64,000 nt of DNA from a virus (Duplodnaviria > Caudoviricetes), in the IMG/VR virus record IMGVR_UViG_3300028635_000004, positions 26,328-90,327 of that record; one strand, 5' to 3'. The translations under genes and the position numbers were made by a program. Shown piece by piece: positions 26,450 through 53,332 of the stretch. Numbering within the stretch: the stretch's first letter is position 1; every line of letters starts with the position of its first letter. Under the pieces are notes generated by a model. The model had not been told where the DNA came from. It saw only the letters and a program-made list of their open reading frames with translations, and made no database searches.

Positions 26450-26645
26450 AACTAAAGATTTCGTTCATATTTGCATATCTCTTAAGCCGATATGCTAACC
26501 TCGCTAACACTTGATTGAGTCGGCTTATATTGTACGCTATAATTAAGATAAGGTTACTATGTTATTAGTAAAATATCGAAATTATGGTACTCAAAAATAA
26601 GGTAAATGGTAGCCATAAAAGACTACCACTTACCTATTTTGTGTG

Positions 26646-35255: not shown

Positions 35256-35283
35256 TATATTTCACTTTAGGGTTAGTGATTTG

Positions 35284-35356
35284 TGACTCAATTAGGATTT
35301 GAACCTAAGACCCCATCATTAAAAGTGATGTGCTCTACCAACTGAGCTATTGAGTC
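35284..35356 (-). tRNA. trnK: tRNA-Lys(UUU)
   Basis: GACTCAA acceptor; AGCTCAGTTGGTAGAGC D-arm; CATCA-CTTTTAA-TGATG anticodon arm; TTCAAAT T-loop; CCA not encoded. Confidence 0.92.
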
Positions 35357-35360
35357 AAAG

Positions 35361-35433
35361 TTGACCCGCCTGGACTCGAACCAGGACTCTGCGGAACCAA
35401 AATCCGTTGTGTTACCAGTTACACTACAGGTCA
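35361..35433 (-). tRNA. trnQ: tRNA-Gln(UUG)
   Basis: TGACCTG/CGGGTCA acceptor; TTTTGGT anticodon loop; CCTGG-TTCGAGT-CCAGG T-arm. Confidence 0.9.
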
Positions 35434-35443
35434 AATAGGATTG

Positions 35444-35527
35444 TACCTAGGGCGGGACTTGAACCCGCACGACCTTTGGGCCAATACATTTTAAGTGTAT
35501 CATGTCTACCTATTCCATCACCTAGGC
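35444..35527 (-). tRNA. trnL: tRNA-Leu(UAA)
   Basis: GCCTAGG acceptor; ATACA-CTTAAAA-TGTAT anticodon arm; long variable arm; GCGGG-TTCAAGT-CCCGC T-arm. Confidence 0.92.
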
Positions 35528-35637: not shown

Positions 35638-36180
35638 TTATAGTACCTGTTCATGTTGTCGCATTATTTTTTTAGCTTTTTTGCGACCATGCTTCTTACA
35701 TAAGTTTTTTACATATTTTGAAGTATGAGTACGCCTTGAAGGTGAAGAATAGATACACATAGATGTACCTTTACTTTTTAAGCACTTAAGTAGTTCATAC
35801 TCAGTGATGGGTTTTTTCTTTGCTTTGTCAATGTAGTCTAAAGCTAACTTTGCTGTATTAATAATTTCACTTTTTGTGAAATCATCAATATTGGTAAGTT
35901 TGCTTATTTCAGACTTTGTGTCTTTCAACATATTGAGCTGAGCAAGACTCATAAGTGTAGTATGAACCATTGACCTGTTATGGGATTCTTGTAGTGGTAA
36001 CCGCCTGGCAAGCCCAAACGGCCATTGTGTTTTTTTGTTATTACCCATGCCATCAAGGTGCTCAATTTTATGAATACCCTGCATAGCATTAATTTTAGCA
36101 ATTGCCCTATTATAAAGTTTCATTGCTTTTGGGTTACCTTGTATAGCAGCCAAGGTTGCTGGTAGTTTTTCCTTTTTCAT
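35638..36180 (-). CDS. Basic hypothetical protein
   Basis: ORF directly downstream of the sigma factor gene. Confidence 0.55.
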   Translation of the reverse strand: MKKEKLPATLAAIQGNPKAMKLYNRAIAKINAMQGIHKIEHLDGMGNNKKTQWPFGLARRLPLQESHNRSMVHTTLMSLAQLNMLKDTKSEISKLTNIDDFTKSEIINTAKLALDYIDKAKKKPITEYELLKCLKSKGTSMCIYSSPSRRTHTSKYVKNLCKKHGRKKAKKIMRQHEQVL

Positions 36181-36192
36181 TCCTTTTTTTGA

Positions 36193-36789
36193 TTATTTTA
36201 GGTTTTTATTATCCTTCATTAAATTGTATAATGTACGTCTTGCCCTAAATAAACCAGTTTTAATTGTACCAATTGGTTTATTGAGTTGCTCAGCTATTTC
36301 TTCATATGATAAATCTTGAAAATACTTCATATGAATAAGTGTTTTATGAAATGGCTTAAGCGTTTCAATCTCATTACCCACAATATGCCTTATGTCTGAA
36401 GAAATCATTTTATCTTCAGCTGTTAAGTCTGTACATATTATAGGTGTGGTAAAATCGTCTTCAACTGATACTAAATTATTAGCAGATGTTGGTTGTTTAT
36501 TACGCGCACGTACAAAATCAATTGCCTTGTTTTGACCTATTGTATGCAACCATGTACTAAAAGCGTACTTTGGTGAGTAGCTTGATAAAGACTCATATGC
36601 TTTTATGAATACTTCTGCAGCTATATCTTCAGCATCTACAGCATTACCTACTACCCGATACACAACCCAATATAGTGAATCTTTGTACCTGTTAACCAAT
36701 GTAGTAAATGAAGAGTTAACCCCGTTTAATGTTTCAGTTATGAGGTCCATATCTGTTTTCTCACTATTTGGTTTAGTCATATTTTTCAA
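36193..36789 (-). CDS. ECF-family RNA polymerase sigma factor (RpoE/SigW-like)
   Basis: Region 2: DAEDIAAEVFIKAY..FSTWLHTIGQNKAIDFVR. Region 4: YFQDLSYEEIAEQLNKPIGTIKTGLFRARRTL. 198 aa. Confidence 0.92.
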   Translation of the reverse strand: MKNMTKPNSEKTDMDLITETLNGVNSSFTTLVNRYKDSLYWVVYRVVGNAVDAEDIAAEVFIKAYESLSSYSPKYAFSTWLHTIGQNKAIDFVRARNKQPTSANNLVSVEDDFTTPIICTDLTAEDKMISSDIRHIVGNEIETLKPFHKTLIHMKYFQDLSYEEIAEQLNKPIGTIKTGLFRARRTLYNLMKDNKNLK

Positions 36790-37021
36790 ATGTTACTTTG
36801 TAAATTCTGTAATTAACATAATCAATTGTATATATACCGTAACCTTGATTATGCAAAGTATTTAAAATAGCTGTGGGTGTAGTAGTTGGCACATATATTT
36901 CAGTTTTACCAATTAAACTGGCTTCTGCTATTTTTTGCAGTATAATATCATATTCTCGTTTGTAATATGATAATGCCCTACTCCTTGCATTTAACGGTGT
37001 AATTTCAAATGGCCTAATCAT
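36773..37021 (-). CDS. Hypothetical protein
   Basis: Small ORF overlapping the sigma gene start. Confidence 0.5.
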   Translation of the reverse strand: MIRPFEITPLNARSRALSYYKREYDIILQKIAEASLIGKTEIYVPTTTPTAILNTLHNQGYGIYTIDYVNYRIYKVTFEKYD

Positions 37022-37040
37022 AGTTTTAGTGTATTAAATA

Positions 37041-37295
37041 TTACCTTTCGAGGTCACGTATAAATGTAACAATTTCATACATAATATCACTGAGTTTATC
37101 AGCATGATGCTCAGATAATTTAGGCTCCATTCTACCGCTTTTCATATCTTCTATGGTACGGTCAATGTTTTTGTATACATGATGGTGCAGACTACTTATT
37201 TCTCGTGTGTTAAAGTTGTCGTAGTCTTTAATGAAGTTTAACTCAACACGTATAACTTCAAGTACTTCCTTTTGTAATTTTGTTAGCTTAAGCAT
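37041..37295 (-). CDS. Hypothetical protein
   Basis: Small ORF in operon orientation. Confidence 0.5.
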   Translation of the reverse strand: MLKLTKLQKEVLEVIRVELNFIKDYDNFNTREISSLHHHVYKNIDRTIEDMKSGRMEPKLSEHHADKLSDIMYEIVTFIRDLER

Positions 37296-37766
37296 TTTGA
37301 TGTGTTTTAAGTATTAGTTGCCTTAATTGGTTGCGAGCCAATATATACTAATGCTAATATTAGTTCTAGACGTTATGGCATTTCTAATATAACGGGTAGT
37401 TACCCCCGCCAAAAGACGCTTTCGAACCACAAACTAATAAAGCAATACATGTTTTTACTATTAAACTATAAGGCAAGTCCTTTAATATACTGCTGTTGAG
37501 GGTACAGTATAATAACAAACGACACATAAGTGCCTTTGCGCATTAATATATTTTGAGCCCAACGTTAGAATCATAAGTATATTAATGTTTGTTTATTTTT
37601 TTAAAGTTGTCAACGTTATCATATAAATTATATTATAACTAGTATTTTGAAAATATAATTTATATTAATAATCAAATTGTTGGCACTGAGTCACCCCAAC
37701 CTGAGTTTATAGTTTTAACTTTCCCCAACAAAAGCAAAACCCCATTGATGGATAATTTTGGGTTTC

Positions 37767-38735
37767 CTACTTAAAGAAGCTTGCAAAATTATCAACACCA
37801 ATAGCTAACTGGCCAATTTTGTCAATGTAATTTAAAAACCTTTTTGTTAATCTGTTGCAGTCGATTATGTACTGTATAATTTCAGTGTAATCAAATGTAC
37901 AATTACCTAACCTGTATTCAAGTGTAAAGTCGTTATTGTTAAGATGTCGAAAATTAACCCAATTGAATTTACCACAATTAGGTACGATACCGTGTTGTCT
38001 ACGTTGTAACTTAGCGGAATCAAGAGTAAGTGTTTTAAAATATTTTAATTCTGCTAATTTATAAACATTCAATGGGGGTAAACTTTCAAAACCTATATTG
38101 CGAACATTACCAATTACATAACCACCATATATAAAACGTCTGTCTACTACATGCTTACTTATACCCCTTTTAAAATCGAAGTTATGTGTAGTTGGTACCC
38201 AATTGAATATCTTACCAGCTTCTGTTAGGAAGTTGTCAACAGTTTTACAGATTTGTGAGTTACCACTATTAGCAATTATCATTATACCAAGACACCTATA
38301 TAACTTATTACTATAAGCTTTCTTCATCCAATTTGTAATGTTAATATGGATATGAAGTGAGCCATTTGTAGCTGTACCTGATATTGACTTTAATGTTTTA
38401 AGTGCTTTATATAACACTATTAAGTCATTTATTTTAGGAGCAATAGATATTTTAGTTTCTATTACACCGTTATTGTCTAAAAAGTCACAATCATAATCAA
38501 TAATTTGTGGTTTTTTTTCAGAAGAATGATTGTGTCGTATAGACAATATTGCGTTATGGTACTTTGGTGTAGACACAGGCATGTGCTCAATTTCAATTGA
38601 AGACCTGTATGGTATTAAACGCGTGATGATTCGCCCAATTAATGCATTATTAGCATTTGATTGAGACTTCAACTTAGGTAAAAGGTAAGGGACAGTTAAT
38701 ACTGCCCCCTTAATCCTTTGTGTGTAACCAGGCAT
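37767..38735 (-). CDS. Putative amidoligase-like (COOH-NH2 ligase) protein
   Basis: IEIE..IETK..NGSLHIHI..WVNF..TLEYR motif order. Confidence 0.55.
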   Translation of the reverse strand: MPGYTQRIKGAVLTVPYLLPKLKSQSNANNALIGRIITRLIPYRSSIEIEHMPVSTPKYHNAILSIRHNHSSEKKPQIIDYDCDFLDNNGVIETKISIAPKINDLIVLYKALKTLKSISGTATNGSLHIHINITNWMKKAYSNKLYRCLGIMIIANSGNSQICKTVDNFLTEAGKIFNWVPTTHNFDFKRGISKHVVDRRFIYGGYVIGNVRNIGFESLPPLNVYKLAELKYFKTLTLDSAKLQRRQHGIVPNCGKFNWVNFRHLNNNDFTLEYRLGNCTFDYTEIIQYIIDCNRLTKRFLNYIDKIGQLAIGVDNFASFFK

Positions 38736-38740
38736 ACCTA

Positions 38741-38941
38741 CTATTTTAAAGTAGGTTCTGTTCTTGATGGTGATTTAGCAGCACGCTCAGCTTTCTTTGC
38801 AAGCTTTTTGGCAGCTAATATTGCCTCAATCATGTCTGCTTTTAACATTCTTGCAGGTAATGCAAGGCCATACTCATTGCGCGCATAAGTAACCAGGTCA
38901 GCCTTGGTCATTTTTTCAAGTGTTTTTGCTGTCTTTGTCAT
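38741..38941 (-). CDS. Small Rho-N/HeH-like nucleic-acid-binding protein
   Basis: LEKMTKADL..A..GL..KADMIEAIL pattern. Confidence 0.5.
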   Translation of the reverse strand: MTKTAKTLEKMTKADLVTYARNEYGLALPARMLKADMIEAILAAKKLAKKAERAAKSPSRTEPTLK

Positions 38942-39166
38942 TTGATTAAGTGTTTAGTTAGACATATGTTAATTGAAAGTAAATGCAAAAGAAAAAGGGG
39001 ACACATTGAACATTATGTCACAATAAAGACAGTGTAACACCCAATCACTGACTTAAGGTGTCCCCTAATTACAAATAAAAAAATAAGGTGATTGAGCCAG
39101 GAGTGCATTTATAAAAACTCAAGAACTCACTGCTATGGATATAGCACTCCTGACTCAATGTATTAG

Positions 39167-39238
39167 TTGCGGTGGTGGGATTTGAACCCACGACCTTCAG
39201 GTTATGAGCCTGACGAGCTGCCGCTGCTCCACACCGCG
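39167..39238 (-). tRNA. trnM: tRNA-Met(CAU), initiator-like
   Basis: CGCGGTG/CACCGCA acceptor with C1xA72 mismatch; A11-U24; TCAGG-CTCATAA-CCTGA anticodon arm; TTCAAAT T-loop. Confidence 0.9.
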
Positions 39239-39414
39239 AATGATGTATAGATGACTTTTGTGGGACTAAGCTGGTTTGAACTTATAATGTATAAGACATT
39301 ATAAGGCACCCCTTTCCATTGCCAGCATCCACCACTGTGGCTAGGCCTGACCTACTTGATTATTTAGTCCCTAAGGGGAGTAAGGGGACTATGCCCCTTA
39401 CCCTATTTCTTACA

Positions 39415-40158
39415 CTAGATATCTGTATCATCGGCTACAGTATCATCGGTTGTTTCAATAACTTCCTGTTCTGGCTCAGGATGTTCGTCAATAGATGTGT
39501 TTTGTACAGCGTTGCCTGGGTCTTCGGTAGTAGTTTTTATTTCTACTTTTTCTGAAGCTTTCAGCACAGCTTCAATAGCACGTGCTATATAAACATCGGG
39601 ATTTTCACATTCTCTGCCAAATAAAAATACTTGGCCAGTAGTGGTAGTAACGGGTAATTCTACAATAGAACCGTCCTTAGCATACTGCCTTGCTTTGAAC
39701 TTGACAAGTTTATGACTTTTTGGGTCACGATTCATCCTGTATACTGCATAAGGCAGTTTAAAGTCAACGATGTTACCCGGAATTGCCATATTTATGAGGG
39801 TGATGGACATACTTGTCTTATCACCTTCGTCTTTAATATAGGTGGGATTAGCTTCTTTGTGAGCTTTAATTTCACGTAGAATTGCCCCAAAAAGTTCAGG
39901 ATGTTGGCGTTCAAAACAGTTGAATGTGAATGGCTTCATTTGTGGATTAGGCACATTTACTGTCCTACCATCTTTCAATCTGACAGTTCTGTTTGCGTCT
40001 TCTGTTAGCCTTAAGTGAAAGAATGAACGACGCTTGTCAGCATCACCGCCAAATATGAAACCAGCTGGTATGTTGGCATCACGCATAAATTTTGGTTTGT
40101 CAGGGTCGTCTTTACGAGGAGCACCGACAACTGTTACGATATAATTTTTTTGTTCCAT
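39415..40158 (-). CDS. Hypothetical protein with acidic tail (possible ssDNA-binding protein)
   Basis: beta-rich sequence; C-terminus DDTVADDTDI. Confidence 0.55.
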   Translation of the reverse strand: MEQKNYIVTVVGAPRKDDPDKPKFMRDANIPAGFIFGGDADKRRSFFHLRLTEDANRTVRLKDGRTVNVPNPQMKPFTFNCFERQHPELFGAILREIKAHKEANPTYIKDEGDKTSMSITLINMAIPGNIVDFKLPYAVYRMNRDPKSHKLVKFKARQYAKDGSIVELPVTTTTGQVFLFGRECENPDVYIARAIEAVLKASEKVEIKTTTEDPGNAVQNTSIDEHPEPEQEVIETTDDTVADDTDI

Positions 40159-40219
40159 GAGATAAAATGATTATTTGTTTATTCTGTGTTGTTTGAATTG
40201 CAATAATATGACCTTGTGG

Positions 40220-40390
40220 TCACTTTTTCGTTATTGGATGCTTGTTAATGTCAGCCAATGTTAGTTCGTTGCTTGTAAGCCAATCAGGAGCTGGTGGCTT
40301 GAGTGGCTTTGATGATATAGGCCTTTGTGGATTGCCAATAAATATTTTAAACTTGGCAAGACCTGTTGAATGTTCACCGTACCTGCTCAT
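40220..40390 (-). CDS. Small protein (56 aa, MSRYGEHSTG..PITKK), not in the ORF track
   Basis: ATGA overlap with the stop codon of 40387-40830; open frame to TGA at 40220. Confidence 0.45.
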   Translation of the reverse strand: MSRYGEHSTGLAKFKIFIGNPQRPISSKPLKPPAPDWLTSNELTLADINKHPITKK

Positions 40391-40830
40391 ATAAAATTTG
40401 TTACTGTATGTTTTTGAGCTGGTGTATTTGGTTCGTCAATGTCATATACGTATTTGGTATAGTCAATAAATATTGGTGTATAACCAGCGTCTTTAAGACA
40501 TTGAGCATATGCTTTGGCTATTTTATATGTGCGGAAATATTCTACACGCCAATAACCGTTGAATATAAATGATACAGCAGCTGTGTAAATTTCACATAGC
40601 ATTGGTGTAGGTCTTTGTTCAACCTTTGCGGGTTTATATTGACCTGACATGGCAATTGCAAATATCAGTGTGAATGAAAAACTTAATATTAACCATGCTG
40701 ATAATGCAACAAGTGTGAGAGTCGCGGCATTTGGTATTGCTATGAAAAAGCATATCAGTGATGCCAGTAAGTTAAGCATTGCAATACTTAATGCAATACG
40801 ATTCCTTTTGTAAAATTCTGATGGTGTCAT
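40387..40830 (-). CDS. Membrane protein (two N-terminal TM helices)
   Basis: Two long hydrophobic segments. Confidence 0.6.
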   Translation of the reverse strand: MTPSEFYKRNRIALSIAMLNLLASLICFFIAIPNAATLTLVALSAWLILSFSFTLIFAIAMSGQYKPAKVEQRPTPMLCEIYTAAVSFIFNGYWRVEYFRTYKIAKAYAQCLKDAGYTPIFIDYTKYVYDIDEPNTPAQKHTVTNFI

Positions 40831-41179
40831 CCTTTTTGAATGTTTTTGGGTGTTAAAAATAAAGGGTGAGTTGTGATATAATATTAAATTCCAATAAGAA
40901 GTAATAAAAAAGCATAGTTAATTGAAATTATTCACATATATTGTTTTAGTAAATATTTCATTATATAATTAACTATGCTGTTTGCTTGTTTGTGAAAGAA
41001 CGGTTCATCTGCGTCAGGAAACTGTGCCGAGGTCTGAGGATGATACATTACGCAGATGATCTGGAATTCCTGGAGATACGAAAACTCACCCTTTATGTGA
41101 AAAAATACGGGGTAGTCACACGTGTTTAACCAATAACCAAGAGCACTATGAAGAGAATTGGGCCACCCCGTATTATGTT

Positions 41180-41554
41180 TTATTCATATGGTAAACTTTG
41201 AAAACCAAGTATAACAGTATCACCTACATGCCAAATATTTGGGTTGTATAGTGTAAGTGTTGTATTTTGGTGTTCAATCCTTTTAACCCTGTATTTATAA
41301 CCTTCAGTATATTCCAGCATATAATAAACAGGGTAAGATGAGTCCATAACAACACATTTTTCATATTTATGTATTGTTTTAACGGACTGTGATGTGCATG
41401 AATTCATGAGTAAGGCAATTATGAAGGCAAGTGCTAATATGAGTAGTACTTTGCCTGTGCCATACCAGAATAACGGGTCTTTTGATTCAACCTTTTTCAT
41501 ATCCTTTTTGTTATTAGTTTTGGTGTAGTAGTTGCCGTCATAAACATGTGGCAT
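41180..41554 (-). CDS. Putative membrane/lipoprotein
   Basis: Hydrophobic stretch ending LLMNSC; the start is probably MKKVES. Confidence 0.55.
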   Translation of the reverse strand: MPHVYDGNYYTKTNNKKDMKKVESKDPLFWYGTGKVLLILALAFIIALLMNSCTSQSVKTIHKYEKCVVMDSSYPVYYMLEYTEGYKYRVKRIEHQNTTLTLYNPNIWHVGDTVILGFQSLPYE

Positions 41555-41729
41555 TATATTCTTCTTCAGAATCGTACACTTCTAGAACTGCTATTAAATC
41601 ACTAGTTTCATCGACGTTGAAATAATATACTAGTTCAGTTAAGATACTTAGTTTTTCATCTTTTGGTAACGTTTTAAAATAAGCTTTAATGGCAGCTAGA
41701 ATTACGGGTTTAAATGTATTTGTTTCCAT
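41538..41729 (-). CDS. Small hypothetical protein
   Basis: ORF in operon orientation. Confidence 0.5.
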   Translation of the reverse strand: METNTFKPVILAAIKAYFKTLPKDEKLSILTELVYYFNVDETSDLIAVLEVYDSEEEYNATCL

Positions 41730-41797
41730 TTTGATTTGATTTAGGTGTTAATTTAGTAAAGCTATAAGAGTATAGCCCTTCGGAAGAAAAAAGGTGG

Positions 41798-41986
41798 CTA
41801 TTGCGCCACCTGCCATACGTCGTAAACAACCTTATTTTTATACTTCGAGGTCGTCACAACGAACGGTCCTTGCATGTGTCCCTGCTCGAGAGTGGTCTTA
41901 CCATTCGAGAGCATAAACTTCGTCCAATGCTTACCTTCTTTGCAGGTAAAACACTTTGAACCAACGACAGAAATCTTCTTTTCCAT
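41798..41986 (-). CDS. Small hypothetical protein (first gene of the - arm)
   Basis: ORF in operon orientation. Confidence 0.5.
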   Translation of the reverse strand: MEKKISVVGSKCFTCKEGKHWTKFMLSNGKTTLEQGHMQGPFVVTTSKYKNKVVYDVWQVAQ

Positions 41987-42226
41987 AGCACAAAATTTAG
42001 TGAGTTAGACATGTGAGTAGCCGGGGTGCTTCCCCTGCCGAACGAGAATAGGGGGGATGTTCTTAGGTCCTATCAACGCTCATGAATAAATACAAAAATT
42101 TATTAGCGCTTAAGGATATACATAAAAATTATATCAGCTCTTGGGGGGGGGATATATATAATAAGGTATAAAGACCAGGGTATGTGGAATAAACAACTAT
42201 ATTATATAAGTTTGACTACCTACAAC

Positions 42227-42254
42227 TGTAACATTATGTTATGTGATGCGTATA
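42227..42254 (+). promoter_or_regulatory. Putative ECF-sigma promoter P1 (TGTAAC-N16-CGTATA)
   Basis: Exact bipartite motif; ATG at 42275 lies 20 nt downstream. Confidence 0.7.
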
Positions 42255-42274
42255 ACCCTAAAACACTTTTTAAT

Positions 42275-42469
42275 ATGAATAATGACGACATGATGAAAAC
42301 ATTACTTCGGTTGCGTGAGGAAATTAAAGAGTTAAGTGAAGCCATTGAAAAAGACAATGAAGATGGCTATTTACTCAGACCATATGTTAGGCGTAGGTAT
42401 GAGGATTTACTAGAGATAGCAAGAGCTGAAGAAAGAGAGCTCTTAGGTGGTATATATATTGATAATTAA
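42275..42469 (+). CDS. Small helical hypothetical protein (start re-called at MNNDD)
   Basis: In frame with track ORF 42182-42469, whose 5' extension overlaps promoter P1. Confidence 0.55.
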   Translation: MNNDDMMKTLLRLREEIKELSEAIEKDNEDGYLLRPYVRRRYEDLLEIARAEERELLGGIYIDN

Positions 42470-42475
42470 TAAGGT

Positions 42476-42826
42476 ATGAAAGAGTATTTTAAGTTTAGGG
42501 AGGTTAATTTTACCCCTAGTACAAATAGGGTTATACTTAAATGTAATAAGTTTGCAACATATAAGCAACCCCAAAGATTTACAGACTTATCTGAGAATGA
42601 AGGTAAAGACCCGCAGAAGGATGAAATGGTTACTGAAATACGTAAAGTTGATGTAAAATATTATTATCAGATTATGGATGTGGTGGCACTCCCAGCAGAC
42701 GATAAGTCGGGTTATAAGGTTGGGGATAAAGTGTTAGTTGACTTTAGGGGTGTCAAGAAATTTGACTTATATAAAGACCTGTACTGGGCATGGCTCATGG
42801 ATATTGCAGGGAAAATTAATGAATAA
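42476..42826 (+). CDS. GroES-like (Cpn10 fold) protein
   Basis: P..NRVIL..VVALP..YKVGDKVLV pattern. Confidence 0.5.
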   Translation: MKEYFKFREVNFTPSTNRVILKCNKFATYKQPQRFTDLSENEGKDPQKDEMVTEIRKVDVKYYYQIMDVVALPADDKSGYKVGDKVLVDFRGVKKFDLYKDLYWAWLMDIAGKINE

Positions 42827-42883
42827 TTATGGCAGAAAAGCTATTAGCGCAATCAAAAAAGTTTTACATTTTAATCAATTTAA

Positions 42884-42911
42884 TGTAACCTTTTAAACAC
42901 CCACACGTATA
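42884..42911 (+). promoter_or_regulatory. Putative ECF-sigma promoter P2 (TGTAAC-N16-CGTATA)
   Basis: Exact bipartite motif in intergenic DNA. Confidence 0.7.
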
Positions 42912-43219
42912 ACCTATAAAAGCACAATCAAACCGCTACCTCAAGGGCTCACGCTGAAGAGCAAGAACCTCCAAGACCACGTTGACTTGCGTACAGGATT
43001 GGGGAGAACTGGGGGGAGATATTACAAGACATAGTAAGAAGGTCCTCCACAAGCCCGAAAGGTAGTTACAATGAAAAGCCTGGGCGTTACTTATCAATGC
43101 AAAAGTAGGGTAGGCAGGAACATCAGAAATGGGCGCCTGTCAGCACTGGCCAGGGCATTTAACTACTAAAACAGGCAAATGGCATAAATCTTGCCATTAA
43201 AGGGAAAGTTATATCTTTT

Positions 43220-43301
43220 AAGTTAATAAAGTTAATTAAGTTAAAAAAGTTAACATAAGTAACATAAGTAATATAAAGTATATAAGTAATATAAGTTCAC
43301 C
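43220..43301 (+). repeat. Nine degenerate ~9-bp tandem repeats (AAGT[T/A]A[A/C/T]..)
   Basis: AAGTTAATA AAGTTAATT AAGTTAAAA AAGTTAACAT AAGTAACAT AAGTAATAT AAAGTATAT AAGTAATAT AAGTTCACC. Confidence 0.85.
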
Positions 43302-43418
43302 TAAGGCAAGTGCTATTACCCAAAAAGTTTAAGTTAATTGATTGGTCAAGGGTTGGGTTATTAGTGTTAATTATACTTATGTTATATGTCTTAATATATT
43401 GTTTTAGCATCATTATAC

Positions 43419-43442
43419 AGCGCTGTTAAAGGCGCTTTTTTT
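43419..43442 (+). terminator. Intrinsic terminator
   Basis: AGCGC-TGTTAAAG-GCGCT followed by a T run. Confidence 0.65.
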
Positions 43443-43453
43443 ATGCCCTTTTG

Positions 43454-43481
43454 TGTAACTTTACCTCACATATAACGTATA
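43454..43481 (+). promoter_or_regulatory. Putative ECF-sigma promoter P3 (TGTAAC-N16-CGTATA)
   Basis: Exact bipartite motif immediately after the terminator and 23 nt before ATG 43505. Confidence 0.7.
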
Positions 43482-43504: not shown

Positions 43505-43771
43505 ATGGCAAAACAAGTTACTGATATACACAAAACAGTTGGGCGCCTAACAAAGTCTGTTAAGGCTTTGTGTGGCGAGTTTAGCGCCTTACACGACTCA
43601 GCTTTACTTATGTACAGCAATGAGATGAACATATACATTACTAAGGTGTTGGTTAGGCGTTGGCACAGGTACCTTAGGTGGCTTAAGGTTAAACGTTTCT
43701 TTGGCATTAAGTCAGCTAATATGTTAACTAAACCCATTAAGGTTAAATTATACACTCATGGCGAGCAATAG
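43505..43771 (+). CDS. Hypothetical protein
   Basis: ATG start MAKQ, in frame with the track ORF. Confidence 0.55.
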   Translation: MAKQVTDIHKTVGRLTKSVKALCGEFSALHDSALLMYSNEMNIYITKVLVRRWHRYLRWLKVKRFFGIKSANMLTKPIKVKLYTHGEQ

Positions 43772-44042
43772 GGTTATGCGTATCGGCGGCATGGCTATGT
43801 TAAATGACGCCAATGCTTCAAAGGGTATTGACGATGCTATATCGTTATGTACTCATGGTCCATGTTTGCGTAAGTCCAGTTGTGGCTTACGTGCTCACTT
43901 GTTAGACCTTTGTGCTGACTTTGGGGTGTTTATGCCCATAACAGGTTGTCGTAGTTATTTAACACAAGGTGACTATGACTTACCTATAGGTTTTGGTGAG
44001 TATAATGATGACGCGGGCGAGTATGTTAATGACGTAGAATAA
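43758..44042 (+). CDS. Cys-rich small protein
   Basis: CxxxxC..C..C..C pattern; overlaps the previous gene. Confidence 0.55.
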   Translation: MASNRVMRIGGMAMLNDANASKGIDDAISLCTHGPCLRKSSCGLRAHLLDLCADFGVFMPITGCRSYLTQGDYDLPIGFGEYNDDAGEYVNDVE

Positions 44043-44060
44043 TGTTATATTAATTAAATT

Positions 44061-44372
44061 GTGAATAATATGTTATATTTTATTAATAACGGTCACGAGC
44101 TTATAAAGGTGGCCAAGGCAGACAATAAAGTTACTAATCTGCATACTAAAGAGTCAAATCAAGTTGCGTATAGGCCCATGTACCTTATACGTGAAGACGG
44201 TACTATACTATATCATGATAATGTAACTCATGAAGGTCAGCGGCTTAAAGTTAAGGCTGGTGATGTAGTAGTTATACTTAATGACGGGGTACCGTTTATT
44301 ATTAAGGACAAGGCTTTTGGCTTAGCACTTGAAATGTTTTTTATTGAAGTAAATAAGCAACAAACAAAGTAG
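44061..44372 (+). CDS. Hypothetical beta-rich protein (ATG at 44070)
   Basis: ORF; resembles the next gene (E.GT...V..G.VV). Confidence 0.6.
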   Translation: MNNMLYFINNGHELIKVAKADNKVTNLHTKESNQVAYRPMYLIREDGTILYHDNVTHEGQRLKVKAGDVVVILNDGVPFIIKDKAFGLALEMFFIEVNKQQTK

Positions 44373-44374
44373 TT

Positions 44375-44749
44375 ATGGCAACAACAAACATTATATACAA
44401 ACAATGGGCTGGCATTGACCTTTTATGCATAAACACTAAGGACTTTACAGTTGCTACATTATCAGACCATGACGATGGTATACATATGTATGGTCGTTTA
44501 ACTGTTATTGAAGAGCCAGGTACATTAATATCAGCTGATGGTACGAAATATGACGTTGTACCGGGTAATGTTGTGTTTACTGCTCATGACGCATGTGTTG
44601 CTATTAAGGATCCTATATTAAGTACGGTTATTCGTAACACTATTACTGCGCGTCGTTCTGCAGCATCACGTGCGAATAAGCCACTCCTTAAGGCTGGGGC
44701 TATAGAGGAAGCTATGAACCGTGATAGGTCAGCAGGGTTAATTGACTAA
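44375..44749 (+). CDS. Hypothetical beta-rich protein
   Basis: ORF; possible paralog of 44061-44372. Confidence 0.6.
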   Translation: MATTNIIYKQWAGIDLLCINTKDFTVATLSDHDDGIHMYGRLTVIEEPGTLISADGTKYDVVPGNVVFTAHDACVAIKDPILSTVIRNTITARRSAASRANKPLLKAGAIEEAMNRDRSAGLID

Positions 44750-44771
44750 TATTAGATTAATAAATTAAGTT

Positions 44772-45104
44772 ATGGTTAAAGCCGAATTAAAAAACAATGG
44801 TGACTTTACTTTAAGTAAAGACAAGTTAATAATTAAGACCTTGGTTGATGGTGTAATGGGTCTTGAAAAAGGTTCTTGGCTCTACTACTTACCTCAAGAT
44901 GATATATATGAGTTTTCATATGCAAAGGAGGACAATCAGTCTGACATAGGTAGGTATTATTCATACAAGTCAGTTAGGGCTAGTATAGCTCGTGCAACTG
45001 TTGAATCATACATAGGTGAGTTATTTGCATATGTTACAGCCAACCTTGTTACTACAATTAGCGGTGACAATGAGGTTACTGATAATACTTGCAAAGATGG
45101 GTGA
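44772..45104 (+). CDS. Hypothetical protein
   Basis: ORF in operon orientation. Confidence 0.6.
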   Translation: MVKAELKNNGDFTLSKDKLIIKTLVDGVMGLEKGSWLYYLPQDDIYEFSYAKEDNQSDIGRYYSYKSVRASIARATVESYIGELFAYVTANLVTTISGDNEVTDNTCKDG

Positions 45105-45315
45105 TTATCAATTAATATTAAGGTGCTCATGTGGGTTTGTGGAGGTTCTTACAGAAATGGCCGAGAATGCTCTGCAGATCCACATAGGCTCTTCAGACAT
45201 TACTGAGGAGCATAATGAGTTAGTTTTAGACTGCAAGCAATGTGGTACTAAAATTGCTCTTGCATTAGTTAAAAAACCAAGTGATGTATCTACGGAAGTT
45301 TGTAACGCGGAATAA
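45097..45315 (+). CDS. Zinc-ribbon protein
   Basis: CSCG..CKQCG; start re-called at MGDYQ. Confidence 0.6.
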   Translation: MGDYQLILRCSCGFVEVLTEMAENALQIHIGSSDITEEHNELVLDCKQCGTKIALALVKKPSDVSTEVCNAE

Positions 45316-45667
45316 TTTTACAAGGGTATATATTACTGTCCTAAATGGTCTCCTACAACTTACGCCACGTGAGATCGACGTCTTTAGTGTATTAATGCAG
45401 ATTGAGTTAGCGTGGCAGCCTAAATTACCAGGCGACCTTAAGAATATTATGTCTACAGACAATAGGCGGTTAATAATGAAGGAGGCTAATATTAGTAAGG
45501 CTAATTTAACTAGGGCTGTAAAGAAGTTTATATCTATAGGTATAGTTGAAATATTGCCTGACGGTAGGTATATTATACCCGAGCTTATGAAGCCTATTAT
45601 AACTAGTGATAATAAAATTAATATTCATTTTGTGTTGGACCTTAATAAGCCTGTTAACAACGAGTAA
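45281..45667 (+). CDS. Winged-HTH (MarR-like) DNA-binding protein
   Basis: LTPREIDVF..IMKEANISKANLTRAVKKFISIGIV. Confidence 0.65.
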   Translation: MMYLRKFVTRNNFTRVYITVLNGLLQLTPREIDVFSVLMQIELAWQPKLPGDLKNIMSTDNRRLIMKEANISKANLTRAVKKFISIGIVEILPDGRYIIPELMKPIITSDNKINIHFVLDLNKPVNNE

Positions 45668-45669
45668 TA

Positions 45670-45728
45670 ATGTTATTAGTTAAACAAAAATGGCAAGGGT
45701 ATGCTATTAGTTAAACAAAAATGGCAAG
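45670..45728 (+). repeat. Tandem duplication of a gene start (28 nt x2, 1 mismatch)
   Basis: ATGTTATTAGTTAAACAAAAATGGCAAG-GGT-ATGCTATTAGTTAAACAAAAATGGCAAG. Confidence 0.9.
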
Positions 45729-46102
45729 ATGAGCTAATTCATACAATAGGCTTACTTACTATGAAAGAGGACAGGGTGGTAAAGAAAATAGTTTATCACC
45801 CTTTAGAATTTGCTAAGGCAGTAATGTCAAGTGATGATGACGAGCGCCCCATAAGGATACGTTACTTTGGGGTGTTTGCACTTAAACCTAATAGGTCTAA
45901 GGAGCGTACACGTAAATTTCAACATATATATAGGCACTATGACACATTTAAGGACATAGTTGCCTCATATGGTTATAATGTTGACACACTACCTGACTAT
46001 CAATCAGTGTTGAAGAAACACTTCTCAGGTAAGGGGATACGTTATATAGACGAAATATACGAGAAAGGCCTAGTTTTAAAACAATATCCAAAGGGGGTGT
46101 AA
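45701..46102 (+). CDS. IHF/HU-like protein
   Basis: PIRIRYFGVF beta-arm-like motif; position upstream of the terminase, as in crAss-like phages. Confidence 0.5.
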   Translation: MLLVKQKWQDELIHTIGLLTMKEDRVVKKIVYHPLEFAKAVMSSDDDERPIRIRYFGVFALKPNRSKERTRKFQHIYRHYDTFKDIVASYGYNVDTLPDYQSVLKKHFSGKGIRYIDEIYEKGLVLKQYPKGV

Positions 46103-46120
46103 ACATCCCCTTATTTTTTT
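46091..46120 (+). terminator. Intrinsic terminator
   Basis: AAGGGGGTG-TAAA-CATCCCCTT followed by ATTTTTTT. Confidence 0.75.
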
Positions 46121-46133
46121 ATGTATATCAGGC

Positions 46134-46673
46134 ATGAAGTTATTCGATATTCAACAAGGCAAGGTAGTAATGAACCCTACTATGCTTTGGGTGCCAGAGT
46201 TTAGGGCTCTGTGGGACCGTGACAAGACCAAGTCTAAGGAGCAAGCTGTAAATGAAATATCCTATGTGGTATTCCTACATGATTTTAGGTCTCCTTATAT
46301 GGCGTATGCCTCTATAGACCGTGAGTCTCGTGTACGTCAAGACTGTTTTAAGTCTAAAAAATGGCAACCTGACGCTGCTATAAAGGCTGCAATAGCCAAG
46401 TATAAGGAGCTTCAGAGCACACCAATATCCAGGCTCCTACAATCTGCAATGGACACTTGTGACAAAATGACAGACTATTTTAATAATGTAGACTTTAATA
46501 AGGTTGACCATAATGGTAAACCTATATTTACATTAAAGGAGGTTTCTAGTGTTATGAAAGACATTGGGGACATTGTCTCCTCATTGGAGTCTTTAAAGGA
46601 CAAGGTTGAACGTGAGCAACTTGAGAAAGGTTCTATACGCGGTGGTGGTTCTATAGGTATGTTTGAAAGGTAG
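46134..46673 (+). CDS. Conserved crAss-like protein upstream of TerL (candidate small terminase)
   Basis: Synteny with terL; helical sequence; function inferred. Confidence 0.55.
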   Translation: MKLFDIQQGKVVMNPTMLWVPEFRALWDRDKTKSKEQAVNEISYVVFLHDFRSPYMAYASIDRESRVRQDCFKSKKWQPDAAIKAAIAKYKELQSTPISRLLQSAMDTCDKMTDYFNNVDFNKVDHNGKPIFTLKEVSSVMKDIGDIVSSLESLKDKVEREQLEKGSIRGGGSIGMFER

Positions 46674-46674
46674 T

Positions 46675-46721
46675 ATGTTTGAGTTACCATTAAAGGTGTT
46701 ATGTTTGAGTTACCATTAAAG
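46675..46721 (+). repeat. Tandem duplication of the terL start (21 nt x2, exact)
   Basis: ATGTTTGAGTTACCATTAAAG-GTGTT-ATGTTTGAGTTACCATTAAAG. Confidence 0.9.
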
Positions 46722-49700
46722 AAAACAGTTAATTCTGACAAGTTTAGGCAGCCCGCTATATTTTTTGAAAAGCATGGTGTATACACATTTGCACCACCTG
46801 GTACAAGCGAGTATATAAAGTATTGGACTGACGAAATGACCAAATGTCAGTATGGGTATACTGCACCCGATGGTGATTGGGTGTCAGGTTACTTCTACTT
46901 TTATTTAAACTATACTAGGATTATTGTTGTAAAGGACGTTACGGTAGACATTGGTAATGGTCGTAAGCGCAAGCGTCGTGAACGTGTTGAGTCATTCCCA
47001 TATTTTTGGGACTATGACCGCGCTTATTATGATGCTATAGAGCTTGCTGAAACTCATGGTAAACATTTGGCTGTTATTAAAGCTAGGGGTAAGGGCTATT
47101 CTTTTAAGGGCGCATCAATGCTAGTACGTAACTATTATATGTTTAGGGAGTCTGTATCATATGCTATTGCTGCAGAAAGTGAATTCTTAACAAAAGACGG
47201 CTTATTAACTAAGGCCTGGGATATGATGGACTTTATAGACAATAATACAGGTTGGTATAAGCGTAGGCAAGTTAAGAATAGTTCTATACATAAGCGTGCT
47301 TCATTTATAGAAAATATAAATGGTGTACCAGTTGAGCAAGGTTATAAATCTGAAATCATAGGTATATCATTAAAGAATGATCCGCAGAAAGCTAGGGGTA
47401 AACGTGGTAAACTTATATTGTTCGAGGAAGCGGGCAAGTTCCCAAATCTTAAAACAGCGTGGCAAATCGCTCGTCCTTCAGTGGAGCATGACGGCGAAGC
47501 ATTCGGGGTTATGATTGCTTTTGGTTGTGTGTGCGAAGGAACAAAAGTAATAATCAATGATGGGCTTCCTATTAATATAGAAGATATAAAACCCAATGAT
47601 GGTGTATTGGGTTATAATACATATTCTGTTGAAAAACAGGACATTGAGCATTTTAGGGAGCCTTATATTACTAGGTGTTTAAGGTTAACTACAAATACTG
47701 GTAGGAGTTTAGAAGCTAGCTACGATCACCCCATAGTGTACAGTCATAAAACTCTTACTAGGCGAGTTCCTGGGAGGCGATTTTACAATGAACATATGAA
47801 AACCTGGAAGTGGAAACAATTACAGGATTTTAAGGTAGGCGATCAAGTTGGTGTAATAGAAGAAGTTCCTATATTTGGGGAAAAAGAAATGTGGAATCCT
47901 AGGTTTATAGGTTGGTTGATAGGAGATGGTACTTATGGTTTTGATAAAACTCCCAGGTTAAGTAATTGCGAACCAGAAATAAATGAATATATAGACAAGC
48001 ATTTTCAGACAAAAATAGAAAAACATTATATTACAAAAGATAATAAACTTTATCGAGAGACTAGGGTTAAAGGAATTTGTTGGATATTAAGGGAGTTGGG
48101 TATATATGGTCAAGTAAAAAATAATAAGCGGCTCCCAGATTTGGCATTTTATTGTACAAAAGAAGATATTTGTGAATTATTGGGTGGTTTATATGATACA
48201 GATGGTTATATATCAAAACCCAATGGTAGTACAAATGCAAAAATCATATTAACATCTTCTTGTTTTGCTCTATTAGAACAAGTTTTATTTCTATTAAATA
48301 AGTTGGGTATTCATGGTTCAATTAGGACTATAAAACCAAGTAGGAAAAATAAAAAAGATAAAAACGATTACTATAGACTGGAAGTAGGGGATATAAAAAG
48401 TATGTTAATTTTTGCAGAAAACATAACTCTTCTCCCTAAGCATAAAAAAGAAAGATTAGAGGAATATAAAAGAATTTTATCTGATAGAAAACCATTATTA
48501 TCTTCTTATATACATGGTATAAGATTTGAAAGAGTTGTAAAAGTAGAGGAGATTGGGGATAAAAAGGTTTATAATTTAGTAGCTTCTGGCACGCATACTT
48601 ATATCGCAAATGGAATTATAACACATAATACGGGGGGTACTGAAGAAGCCGATTATACAGGCTTAAAAGACCTATTTTATGAGCCCGAAGCATATAACTG
48701 TTTACCATTAAGGAACATATGGGACGAAGGCGAACAAGACACAGCATGTGGTTTCTTTGTACCACAATCATCTAATATAGAGAAGTTTATGGACTCTGAT
48801 GGTAATACTGATTATGACCAAGCTACTCATTTTATATTAGCAGAGCGTGAAAAGGTTGTCGCTCATGCATCAGACCGTGCTGCCATAGACCGTCATATAT
48901 GTGAGCAACCATTAACTCCTGCAGAGGCTACACTTAATATTAGTACTAATATGTTTCCTAAGAAGGACCTTATTAGGCATTTAGCTACTATTAGGAACTC
49001 TGAATCTATAAGGGGTTTAAAACAAGTTGGTTCGTTATATTTTGACTCAAATGGTAAAGTTAAATTTGAACAGAATCCAAAATTAAAAGACTTAACAAGG
49101 TATAGGCTACAAGCTAATGAAAGTAAGGCAGGCGCAGTTGTTATATGGGAGCATCCTATAGAGGATCCACCATGGGGTTTATATATAGGGGGGTGCGATC
49201 CATATGATCACGACACTTCTAGTACAGACTCACTCGGTTCTGTTTTTATATATAAACGTGTACAAACATTTGAATCTTGGTATGATGTACCTGTTGCAGA
49301 ATATACAGGTCGCCCTGACAGGGCAGAAACATTCTATGAAACGGTTAGGATGTTAGCTATGTATTACGGTGCAACATTGTTATATGAAAATGAGAAAAAG
49401 GGTTTGTTTACATATTTTACAAATAAACATTGTGAATATCTTTTAGCAGACCAGCCTTCAAAATTAAAAGACGTCATCAAAGATTTAACTGTTGTAAGGG
49501 GTAAGGGTACTCACATGAACAAACCAATTAAACAATGGATGGAGACACTCATTAGGGATTGGTTGTTAGACGAATATGAACCTGGTAGGAAGAACCTTAC
49601 AAAATTATTATCCGAACCATTATTAGAAGAATTAATAGCATATGATCCTGTAAAAGGTAACTTTGACAGAGTTATATCATTTGGGTTGGCTTTAATATAT

Positions 49701-49820
49701 AATGTGGAGTTGGACCATGTTAAAATTAAAAAGGTGTCTGAGGAAGAAAAGATTGACTTATACCTTTTTAAAAAACCATTATTTTTAAATAAAATTCCTA
49801 ATTATCATGTCGCAAACTAG
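46701..49820 (+). CDS. terL: Terminase large subunit containing an intein
   Basis: KARGKGYS Walker A; LILFEEAG Walker B; GCDPYD and DRVISF nuclease motifs. Confidence 0.93.
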   Translation: MFELPLKKTVNSDKFRQPAIFFEKHGVYTFAPPGTSEYIKYWTDEMTKCQYGYTAPDGDWVSGYFYFYLNYTRIIVVKDVTVDIGNGRKRKRRERVESFPYFWDYDRAYYDAIELAETHGKHLAVIKARGKGYSFKGASMLVRNYYMFRESVSYAIAAESEFLTKDGLLTKAWDMMDFIDNNTGWYKRRQVKNSSIHKRASFIENINGVPVEQGYKSEIIGISLKNDPQKARGKRGKLILFEEAGKFPNLKTAWQIARPSVEHDGEAFGVMIAFGCVCEGTKVIINDGLPINIEDIKPNDGVLGYNTYSVEKQDIEHFREPYITRCLRLTTNTGRSLEASYDHPIVYSHKTLTRRVPGRRFYNEHMKTWKWKQLQDFKVGDQVGVIEEVPIFGEKEMWNPRFIGWLIGDGTYGFDKTPRLSNCEPEINEYIDKHFQTKIEKHYITKDNKLYRETRVKGICWILRELGIYGQVKNNKRLPDLAFYCTKEDICELLGGLYDTDGYISKPNGSTNAKIILTSSCFALLEQVLFLLNKLGIHGSIRTIKPSRKNKKDKNDYYRLEVGDIKSMLIFAENITLLPKHKKERLEEYKRILSDRKPLLSSYIHGIRFERVVKVEEIGDKKVYNLVASGTHTYIANGIITHNTGGTEEADYTGLKDLFYEPEAYNCLPLRNIWDEGEQDTACGFFVPQSSNIEKFMDSDGNTDYDQATHFILAEREKVVAHASDRAAIDRHICEQPLTPAEATLNISTNMFPKKDLIRHLATIRNSESIRGLKQVGSLYFDSNGKVKFEQNPKLKDLTRYRLQANESKAGAVVIWEHPIEDPPWGLYIGGCDPYDHDTSSTDSLGSVFIYKRVQTFESWYDVPVAEYTGRPDRAETFYETVRMLAMYYGATLLYENEKKGLFTYFTNKHCEYLLADQPSKLKDVIKDLTVVRGKGTHMNKPIKQWMETLIRDWLLDEYEPGRKNLTKLLSEPLLEELIAYDPVKGNFDRVISFGLALIYNVELDHVKIKKVSEEEKIDLYLFKKPLFLNKIPNYHVAN
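47526..48629 (+). mobile_element. Intein (368 aa) with LAGLIDADG homing endonuclease
   Basis: AFG|CVCEGT...GIITHN|TGG; FIGWLIGDG and LLGGLYDTDG motifs; removal restores AFGTGG. Confidence 0.93.
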
Positions 49821-52182: not shown

Positions 52183-52187
52183 TTATT

Positions 52188-53306
52188 ATGGCTGAAGATA
52201 AGGTAGATAAGAAAGACTTATTTCAAGGATTTGATGCGCTCTCGTCATTGATATATCGTGACGATGGTAGCGGTGAACCCATTGCTAAACCAAGGGACGA
52301 TGATGATACTCCAGAACCTGATTTTACAGGTGACAATGACGATGATGAAAGTGATATACAGGAGCCCGATAGTGACAGCGATGATGGCGATGATGATTCA
52401 AAATCTGGTAAAACCGGCGATGATGACGATGACCTCGATGATGATGGTGAGGATTTGAGTCAGTATGAAGGAGACGTTAGTGCTTATTTTGCATCAGACT
52501 TAGCGGACAAATTAGGCATAGAGATACCAGAGGATATGGAGATCAAAACATTAGATGGTGTTGTTGATTTACTTATACAGGTAGTAAGGGAGAATTCTAT
52601 TCCTACTTTTGCAAATGAAGAGTTAGAAAAATTAAATAAGTACGTCACTGAAGGCGGTGATCTTAAAACATACTTCTCAGAGATCTATAGTAATACTTTA
52701 GATTTAGACAATATTGACATTGCTGTTGATAGGGATCAGAAGGCTGTTCTTAGGGAACATATGCTTAATCAGGGTTATAAAGAAGAGAAGATTACACGTG
52801 CTATAGAGCGTTATGAAGACGCTGGTGTTCTTCAAGATGAAGCCGAAGAAGCCCTAGAATTGGTAAAAGAATTCAGGGAAAAAAAGGCAAAAAAGCTATT
52901 AGCGGAACAAGAAAAATTAGCCCTTGATGAAGAAAAAGCGAAACATGATTTCGTGGAAACTGTATATAATACAGTAGGGCAGTTGAAAGACGTTCGTGGT
53001 ATTCCTTTAACGGAGTCAGACAGACGTGAACTTTTGGACTATATGTTTAAAACAGATAGGACTGGTTTGACTGCAATGCAAAAAGATTATCAAGATCCTA
53101 AAAAAAGAATTGGTAATTTAATTGAGACAGCATATTTTATGAAGTATGCTGATAAGATAATTTCAGAAAATAAAAAGCAAGGCGAAAAAAAGGCAATAGA
53201 AGATATTCGCAAAAAGTTTAAAGCAGGTAAAAACAAGCGTAGTGCTGGGGGCAATACGAGTTTTGATGGAACTTCAGAACCTCTTCTTAAGCTCTCCTTG
53301 CGATAG
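52188..53306 (+). CDS. Acidic scaffold-like protein (between portal and MCP)
   Basis: D-rich N-terminus and helical C-terminus; crAss synteny. Confidence 0.65.
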   Translation: MAEDKVDKKDLFQGFDALSSLIYRDDGSGEPIAKPRDDDDTPEPDFTGDNDDDESDIQEPDSDSDDGDDDSKSGKTGDDDDDLDDDGEDLSQYEGDVSAYFASDLADKLGIEIPEDMEIKTLDGVVDLLIQVVRENSIPTFANEELEKLNKYVTEGGDLKTYFSEIYSNTLDLDNIDIAVDRDQKAVLREHMLNQGYKEEKITRAIERYEDAGVLQDEAEEALELVKEFREKKAKKLLAEQEKLALDEEKAKHDFVETVYNTVGQLKDVRGIPLTESDRRELLDYMFKTDRTGLTAMQKDYQDPKKRIGNLIETAYFMKYADKIISENKKQGEKKAIEDIRKKFKAGKNKRSAGGNTSFDGTSEPLLKLSLR

Positions 53307-53332
53307 AGTTAATAACTAAATTTTAATAAACA

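Follow-up and report, generated by a model that had tools for sequence, protein, structure and literature searches.

A phage-encoded ECF sigma factor and a conserved family of ECF-type promoters at the late arm of an uncultured Suoliviridae-like phage

Introduction

CrAss-like phages rank among the most abundant viruses that infect Bacteroidota in the gut and in the environment, and to our knowledge late-gene switching is known for one of them alone, the model phage phi14:2, which relies on promoters of the primary-sigma type. In Bacillus subtilis, promoters of sigma-W and sigma-X, which are extracytoplasmic function (ECF) sigmas, read TGAAAC-N16-CGTA and TGTAAC-N17-CGAC, respectively. Here we analyze a 64,000-nucleotide stretch of DNA from an uncultured phage, designated G000, that encodes an ECF sigma factor on one arm and carries three copies of the sequence TGTAAC-N16-CGTATA at the head of the other. 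This stretch, referred to as the window, comprises bases 26328-90327 of the 90,327-bp IMG/VR virus record IMGVR_UViG_3300028635_000004, which is estimated to be 86% complete. A preliminary description of the window had proposed that the sigma factor and the three sites form a self-contained switch to late transcription.

Several described systems bear on this proposal. In phi14:2, a virion RNA polymerase (RNAP) serves the early arm while rifampicin-sensitive host RNAP serves the middle and late genes (10.1101/2020.03.07.982082). In coliphage phiEco32, a phage sigma factor, gp36, together with its partner gp79 retargets the host core RNAP to phage promoters (PMC12276001). On the host side, the promoter class SM6 was defined from mapped start sites in Flavobacterium psychrophilum and was assigned to one or more ECF sigma factors by its CGT box at -10 (Guerin et al. 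2021, PMC9723704). Mapped examples of the class are GTAAC-N16-CGTATAAC ahead of the gene of a Band 7 protein and ACAAC-N16-CGTTTATA ahead of yceA (PMC9723704 supplement). RefSeq genomes of the Suoliviridae (cr10_1, cr115_1, cr118_1, cr50_1 and others) already annotate an "RNA polymerase sigma(-W) factor", so the novelty claim of the preliminary description was overstated; our literature search turned up no article that deals with a sigma factor of the Crassvirales or ties one to its promoters.

Results

ECF-type promoter sites at the head of the late arm

We scanned the window for TGTAAC-N16-CGTATA and found exactly three matches, all on the + strand. Dinucleotide-preserving shuffles gave a mean of 0.01 copies, and none of 100 shuffles reached three. 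No copy beyond these three was found in the whole 90,327-bp record. The sites and the units that follow them are listed below.

42227-42254, + strand: P1, TGTAAC-N16-CGTATA, followed 20 nt later by the ATG at 42275
42275-42826, + strand: two small genes downstream of P1, encoding 64 and 116 amino acids (aa), with no Pfam or PHROG match
42884-42911, + strand: P2, TGTAAC-N16-CGTATA, at the head of a non-coding unit
42918-43443, + strand: non-coding unit of ~525 nt, from P2 to a terminator formed by a hairpin and a T-run (43419-43436 plus T7)
43454-43481, + strand: P3, TGTAAC-N16-CGTATA, followed 23 nt later by the ATG at 43505; it heads the uninterrupted packaging/structural arm
43505-54808, + strand: start of the late arm, with small genes followed by TerL (46701-49820, with an intein), portal (49807-52182) and the major capsid protein (MCP; 53333-54808), all by PHROG matches

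The divergent junction of the genome lies between the - strand gene at 41798-41986 and the + strand ATG at 42275. Given this position and the TerL, portal and MCP genes downstream, all three sites fall within the first 1.3 kb of the packaging/structural arm. The preliminary description had given the coordinates of the three sites, their excess over chance, the lack of a further exact copy and their place on the arm, and our scans bore it out on each point. It had also placed every site ahead of an ATG or a non-coding unit; this holds with the correction that P1 sits inside a mechanically called open reading frame (ORF; 42182-42469) whose probable start is the ATG at 42275. P1 would drive the 64-aa and 116-aa genes. 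All three sites show the marks of ECF-type promoters of the SM6 class, namely a -35 element ending in AAC, a CGT box at -10, a spacer of 16-17 nt, and a position on the coding strand ahead of a transcription unit. We hold with high confidence that P1, P2 and P3 are ECF-type promoters.

G000 belongs to the Crassvirales and is nearest to the Suoliviridae, its MCP being 55-58% identical to those of RefSeq Suoliviridae genomes. This identity, along with PHROG matches to crAss-type portal, MCP and TerL, agrees with its earlier designation as a crAss-like phage. A megablast search with the region found nothing similar among named phages. The genome has two divergent arms, of which the - arm encodes DNA polymerase, primase, helicase and ribonucleotide reductase, and a 1889-aa protein (1402-7071) matched the virion RNAP family weakly. 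We also noted that the 1039-aa TerL (46701-49820, + strand) is interrupted at about residues 288-643 by an intein with a LAGLIDADG homing endonuclease (Intein_splicing, 1.1e-09; LAGLIDADG_3, 1.3e-12), and that the TerL proteins of the relatives G004 and G005 are 665-688 aa long and lack the intein. Upstream of P1, the junction segment 41987-42226 contains a run of eight G residues and GC-rich palindromic segments. It may carry start signals of the early arm; it had no motif in common with the relatives.

Conservation of the promoter family in related phages

Relatives were gathered through the capsid protein, and nine full or large records were read. From 27 intergenic sites of the relatives alone we obtained the consensus TGnAACyTT-N13-CGTATAA, in which only the two blocks and the run of T residues that follows AAC carried information; across the set the family reads TGnAACyTT-N13-CGT(A/T)TAA. 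The sites of the relatives were intergenic, lay on the coding strand and preceded start codons by 12-38 nt, and in the intergenic DNA of G004 the motif was the top-ranking spaced dyad. When a weight matrix built solely from the relatives was applied to G000, P3 received the top score (27.2).

Three promoters at the late-arm head are common to G000-G003, and the orthologous sites are kept while their spacers diverge. Orthologues of P1 precede a 62-64 aa gene in G001 (GCAAC), G002 (TGGAAC) and G003 (TGAAAC), so that the third base of the -35 element varies among T, G, A and C. P2 is kept in G000, G001, G003 and L229 ahead of a non-coding stretch of ~450-520 nt that ends in a hairpin and T-run; the equivalent of P2 in G002 precedes two small ORFs (141 and 96 aa) rather than a non-coding RNA. 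P3 lies a few bases past the terminator; an 85-95 aa gene and the remaining arm follow it, and a near-identical site occurs in G001, G002, G003 and L229.

A fourth, weaker site was found within the early arm.

26533-26557, - strand: P4, AGTAAC-N16-CGTACA, followed 84 nt later by an M23 peptidase gene; matrix score 14.9
25805-26449, - strand: M23 peptidase, a probable lysin and thus a late-function gene within the early arm; Pfam Peptidase_M23, 1.5e-28

The position of P4 is kept in G002 (16317) and G003 (16592), with copies 84-86 nt upstream of the M23 gene in G000, G002 and G003. In G004 and G008 a good copy of the motif occupies the equivalent place, ahead of a secreted SLT-like enzyme with a signal peptide. 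P4 is probably an ECF-type promoter too, if a weaker one. The presence of the motif ahead of lysis enzymes that sit among early genes fits the behavior expected of a late promoter. These sites support the earlier ECF-type reading of the motif, which forms a conserved promoter family at the places where late promoters are expected. The 172-aa protein that follows the motif in G004 and G008 was considered as a sigma factor on account of a weak Sigma70_r4_2 match (E 0.03), and was rejected because it is the signal-peptide-bearing, SLT-like lysin. A de novo dyad search of G006 and G007 returned only 2-3 AAC-N16-CGTTTA sites, a number too small to reveal whether sigma and promoter covary.

In relatives resembling G002 we also observed a reverse-oriented 134-aa gene among the early genes, which lies on the strand opposite to the sigma gene and ~1.3 kb upstream of it (L227, 8282-8729; L229, 8873-9328; L231, 4883-5340). 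It has its own well-kept promoter, TGTAAC-N16-CCGTATATA, and no homologue of it was seen in the window.

The sigma factor gene and its neighborhood

The genes at the sigma locus are as follows.

36193-36789, - strand: early-arm gene for an ECF (group IV) sigma factor; Pfam Sigma70_r2, 7.8e-18, and Sigma70_r4_2, 6.2e-11; phrog_1740
35638-36180, - strand: 180-aa basic, lysine-rich protein directly downstream of the sigma gene; adjacency kept in G001-G003 and L227-L232, often with a 4-nt overlap with the sigma gene

The sigma gene probably starts at the ATG at 36780, giving a product of 195 aa, the same length as in the relatives. With regions 2 and 4 in 195-198 aa, it has the architecture of the ECF group, and its score against TIGR02937 (sigma70-ECF) was 101 bits, well above the cut-off of 42.9. 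The ECF sigma gene reported on the early arm in the preliminary description is thereby confirmed. The best NCBIfam match was SigW, at scores below the equivalog cut-offs (NF007223, 135.3 against 209 bits; TIGR02948, 127.3 against 243 bits), and judged from its sequence the phage sigma is SigW-like, not SigW. A profile search identified it as the only sigma factor of the genome. The gene sits 5-6 kb from the divergent junction on the - arm, with sites at the head of the + arm and ahead of the lysin gene, which is the layout of a late switch driven by a phage sigma. We infer that the sigma is made early and that the units behind the sites are transcribed later.

ECF sigma factors typically, though not obligatorily, have an autoregulatory promoter and a co-transcribed anti-sigma. 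No cognate anti-sigma was recognizable among the neighbors of the phage gene, which have no anti-sigma domain, transmembrane segment or HxxxCxxC motif, in agreement with the preliminary description. The 180-aa neighbor had no Pfam match either, and without a transmembrane segment or HxxxCxxC it was not recognizable as an anti-sigma. By analogy it could be a partner of the sigma, as gp79 is of phiEco32 gp36; nothing tested supports such a role.

Four phage tRNA genes (Lys-TTT, Gln-TTG, Leu-TAA and Met-CAT) adjoin the sigma block on the - strand of the early arm (35283-35527 and 39166-39238). ARAGORN detected no standard tRNA gene in G004 and G005, which have no recognizable sigma gene, and made one atypical call, in G004.

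Co-occurrence of sigma factor and motif

The relatives in the sigma clade of G000 have sigma factors 57-98% identical to it, and in each phage whose sigma belongs to the clade the motif occurs no more than 10 kb away from the sigma gene; the conserved site ahead of the 134-aa gene is among these copies. In G172, a complete genome with an MCP 63% identical to that of G000, the sigma lies on one arm and three sites lie on the other. We extended the search to IMG/VR with a 16-base version of the motif, using the reversed pattern as a control. Jumbo-genome fragments of unrelated phages had 52, 43, 32, 27, 22 and 21 sites, nearly all on one strand, and the reversed pattern matched once across the 20 records. 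One to three ECF sigmas are encoded by 10 of the 12 contigs with 6-52 sites; the two exceptions are fragments estimated at 14-19% of a genome. The earlier expectation that sigma and motif occur together thus held in one direction, since the sigma was always accompanied by the motif. It failed in the other, because G004, G005, G173 and G175 carry the motif with no detectable sigma gene, the very pattern that had been named beforehand as refuting the proposal.

The jumbo fragments (complete size estimated at ~330 kb) deserve a description of their own. The contigs behind L283/L313 (G161), L242 (G166), L254 (G164) and L264 (G163) carry 22-52 identical copies of TGTAAC-N16-CGTATA, spaced every 300-600 bp over stretches and, in most of the contigs, all or nearly all on one strand (33 and 10 in G166), with one to three divergent ECF sigma genes among them.

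Cellular counterparts of the promoter and of the sigma factor

The two SM6 variants mapped in F. psychrophilum are those found in the phages, which indicates that Bacteroidota cells have one or more sigma factors that use such promoters. The SM6 start lies ~7 nt past the -10 block, provided that the 61-nt strings given for the class span -50 to +10.

The nearest cellular relatives of the phage sigma (37-46% identity) form a single-copy family present in 71 of 121 sampled Bacteroidota genomes. At the loci of this family (L134-L213) the gene always has a GT2 glycosyltransferase gene on one side and rsmG on the other, has no anti-sigma and stands behind a primary-sigma TAnnTTTG promoter. We also noted that this orphan sigma overlaps the GT2 gene by ~9 nt and is ~65% identical across orders. 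The loop that binds the -10 element (YSPKYAFSTWL) and the sigma-4 recognition helix are almost identical in the phage sigma and the cellular family. In an unrooted tree, sigmas of the G000 type grouped with the cellular family (support 94/98), apart from the other Suoliviridae sigmas.

Motif searches gave no support for the orphan cellular family as a reader of the motif. In 20 Bacteroidota genomes with the family, the motif was not enriched, either in its exact form (13 against 20 for the control) or as GTAACYTT-N13-CGTA (20 against 56), and in five genomes neither the operon of the cellular sigma nor gldN was preceded by such a motif. An autoregulatory promoter of the cellular homologues was sought and none was found, the sigma being the second gene of the GT2-sigma-rsmG unit behind the TAnnTTTG promoter.

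The non-coding unit behind P2

The segment 42918-43443 contains no credible ORF, and an Rfam search of it gave no family match. Its first ~330 nt are kept in G001 and L229 with compensatory changes in stems, such as ATGGCA/TGCCAT versus ATAGTGG/CCACTAT. A similar stretch of structured non-coding DNA follows the junction promoter of the gut phage cr118_1. From these features the P2 unit looks like a late phage non-coding RNA.

Discussion

We favor, with some reserve, the phage's own sigma factor as the main reader of P1, P2 and P3 in G000. By analogy with phi14:2, an injected virion RNAP would transcribe the early arm, leading to synthesis of the phage sigma, which would then bring the core RNAP of the host to P1-P3 and to the promoter of the lysin gene. 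This would turn on the first units of the late arm (the ~525-nt non-coding RNA and two units of small genes), with read-through into the packaging and structural genes, as well as the lysin gene. By analogy with SM6, the predicted start sites lie at about 42261, 42918 and 43488, ~7 nt past CGTATA, and the P2 unit would end near 43443.

Several observations weigh against the phage sigma as the reader. G004 (101 kb) and G005 (92.6 kb) have direct terminal repeats, are estimated at 100% completeness and have capsid proteins 67% and 62% identical to that of G000; they carry eight and two intergenic sites, respectively, and no sigma was detected in them with PF04542, PF08281, TIGR02937 or an unfiltered custom ECF profile. 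The search for a hidden sigma covered all stop-to-stop frames of at least 40 aa with the custom profile and all six frames with the three family models. Nineteen small ORFs were not sigma-like by Pfam, and the best weak candidate reached an hhalign probability of 0.3%; both genomes lack the entire block of genes in which the sigma of G000-G003 is found. Two further near-complete phages without a sigma, G173 and G175, have 2-3 sites. The motif is also constant while the sigmas differ, with 24-47% identity in the jumbo phages and 37-41% between G172 and the G000 type, which is easier to explain by a conserved host reader. Finally, nothing points to autoregulation, as the - strand has no AAC-N16-CGT site upstream of 36789. 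In the relatives without a sigma, one or more host ECF sigmas would have to suffice, unless an unrecognizable factor exists. The description of the switch as self-contained is accordingly not borne out, given that G004 and G005 keep the motif without the sigma and that its sequence is that of a mapped host sigma-ECF class (PMC9723704). One could go further and suppose that a host ECF sigma of the SM6 class is the main reader in all such phages, G000 included, and that the phage sigma has a different or auxiliary role such as boosting transcription, bypassing host anti-sigma control or reprogramming host genes. The complete sigma-less relatives, the equal sequence of the mapped host promoters, the invariance of the motif and the occurrence of a widespread, single-copy cellular family with no adjacent anti-sigma in the GT2/rsmG setting are all in its favor. 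However, phages with many sites almost always encode their own sigma, the sigma gene is kept in most Suoliviridae (all four RefSeq genomes tested encode an ECF sigma), the motif is neither enriched in genomes with the cellular family nor found upstream of the cellular sigma operon or gldN, and a constitutively available host sigma would give no delay between early and late transcription. We therefore regard a host sigma as the main reader in G000 as possible rather than likely. Because the phage promoters belong to the host SM6 class, host ECF sigmas can probably read them too and probably contribute, which would explain the relatives without a sigma; the phage sigma as the main reader in G000 is compatible with such a contribution.

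A reader outside the sigma-70 family, either a phage RNAP (virion or other) or a DNA-binding regulator, would make the likeness to ECF promoters coincidental. CrAss-like phages do have their own RNAP, to whose virion family the 1889-aa protein of G000 has a weak match, and the motif persists in relatives without a sigma; on the other hand, large proteins (857-977 aa) of the sigma-less G005 and G008 had no Pfam match and nothing marks them as an alternative RNAP. AAC and CGT blocks around a fixed, non-conserved 16-nt spacer are the signature of group IV sigma factors, and the motif equals mapped host sigma-ECF promoters (PMC9723704). Moreover, the motif stands on late, not early, units, and the early transcripts made by the virion RNAP of phi14:2 are described as having no common upstream motif (10.1101/2020.03.07.982082). 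Such a reader is in our view very improbable. That the repeats arose by chance or form a non-promoter element, for example a recombination or packaging signal, might be suggested by the copy number of only three in G000. This explanation is effectively refuted by the expectation of 0.01 copies, by the orthologous sites that are kept while spacers diverge, and by the hundreds of coding-strand copies in other phages against a single reversed-pattern match in 20 records.

A broader scenario, which we offer tentatively, is that TGnAAC-N16-CGT(A/T)TA might serve as a common late-promoter currency of Bacteroidota phages, being the target of a conserved host ECF sigma, while crAss-like lineages repeatedly lose, replace or re-capture a sigma gene. 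In the G000 lineage the gene groups as sister to the orphan host family of the GT2-sigma-rsmG unit, apart from the other Suoliviridae sigmas. If the scenario is true, capture of a sigma would convert a host-dependent late program into an autonomous one. For a Suoliviridae-like phage the locus offers a concrete, testable regulon made up of a single sigma gene, three or four promoters whose starts can be predicted, a late non-coding RNA and a lysin gene. A promoter class common to hosts and to relatives without a sigma bears on host dependence, host range and annotation, and the motif is directly usable for annotating late units in many uncultured Bacteroidota phages.

Compared with the described systems, the locus is a genuine instance of a strategy already known, rather than a closed switch private to the phage. 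It resembles phi14:2 in that long, abundantly transcribed non-coding regions are reported there (10.1101/2020.03.07.982082). The two differ in their promoters, since the middle promoters of phi14:2 are like primary-sigma -35/-10 elements and are used by the E. coli sigma-70 holoenzyme, and no phage sigma is reported for it, whereas the late promoters of G000 are of the ECF type and a phage ECF sigma is present. With phiEco32 it would have in common a phage-encoded sigma that redirects the host core RNAP (gp36; PMC12276001). However, phiEco32 belongs to another phage family, infects another host phylum and has phage-specific promoters, while the promoter class of G000 is common to host and sigma-less relatives. 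The bipartite sequence and spacing of the SM6 class equal those of the phage sites; SM6 comprises chromosomal promoters related to stress and to the type IX secretion system, whereas the phage sites head late units and are nearer to the consensus. The SM6 class was mapped in F. psychrophilum, and the paper itself does not single out the host sigma that reads it (PMC9723704). The AAC at -35, the CGT at -10 and the 16-nt spacer are also features of sigma-W/X promoters of B. subtilis, but the phage sigma is not an orthologue of SigW by its score below the equivalog cut-off, has no RsiW-type anti-sigma and comes from another phylum.

The closest comparison is with the RefSeq Suoliviridae, in which an ECF sigma likewise lies on the arm opposite the structural genes, and the junction of cr118_1 carries AGTAAC-N16-CGTTTATA followed by ~300 nt of structured non-coding DNA. 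Their sigmas are 28-37% identical to the G000 type and fall in separate clades, and neither the exact TGTAAC/CGTATA motif nor a relaxed form was enriched in the gut members. Phage sigmas that redirect host RNAP, as in phiEco32, the host SM6 class and the annotated sigma genes of Suoliviridae were thus known already. The present analysis contributes a small, defined regulon in a Suoliviridae-like phage, a conserved non-coding RNA driven by P2, and evidence for gain and loss of the sigma gene around a promoter that persists.

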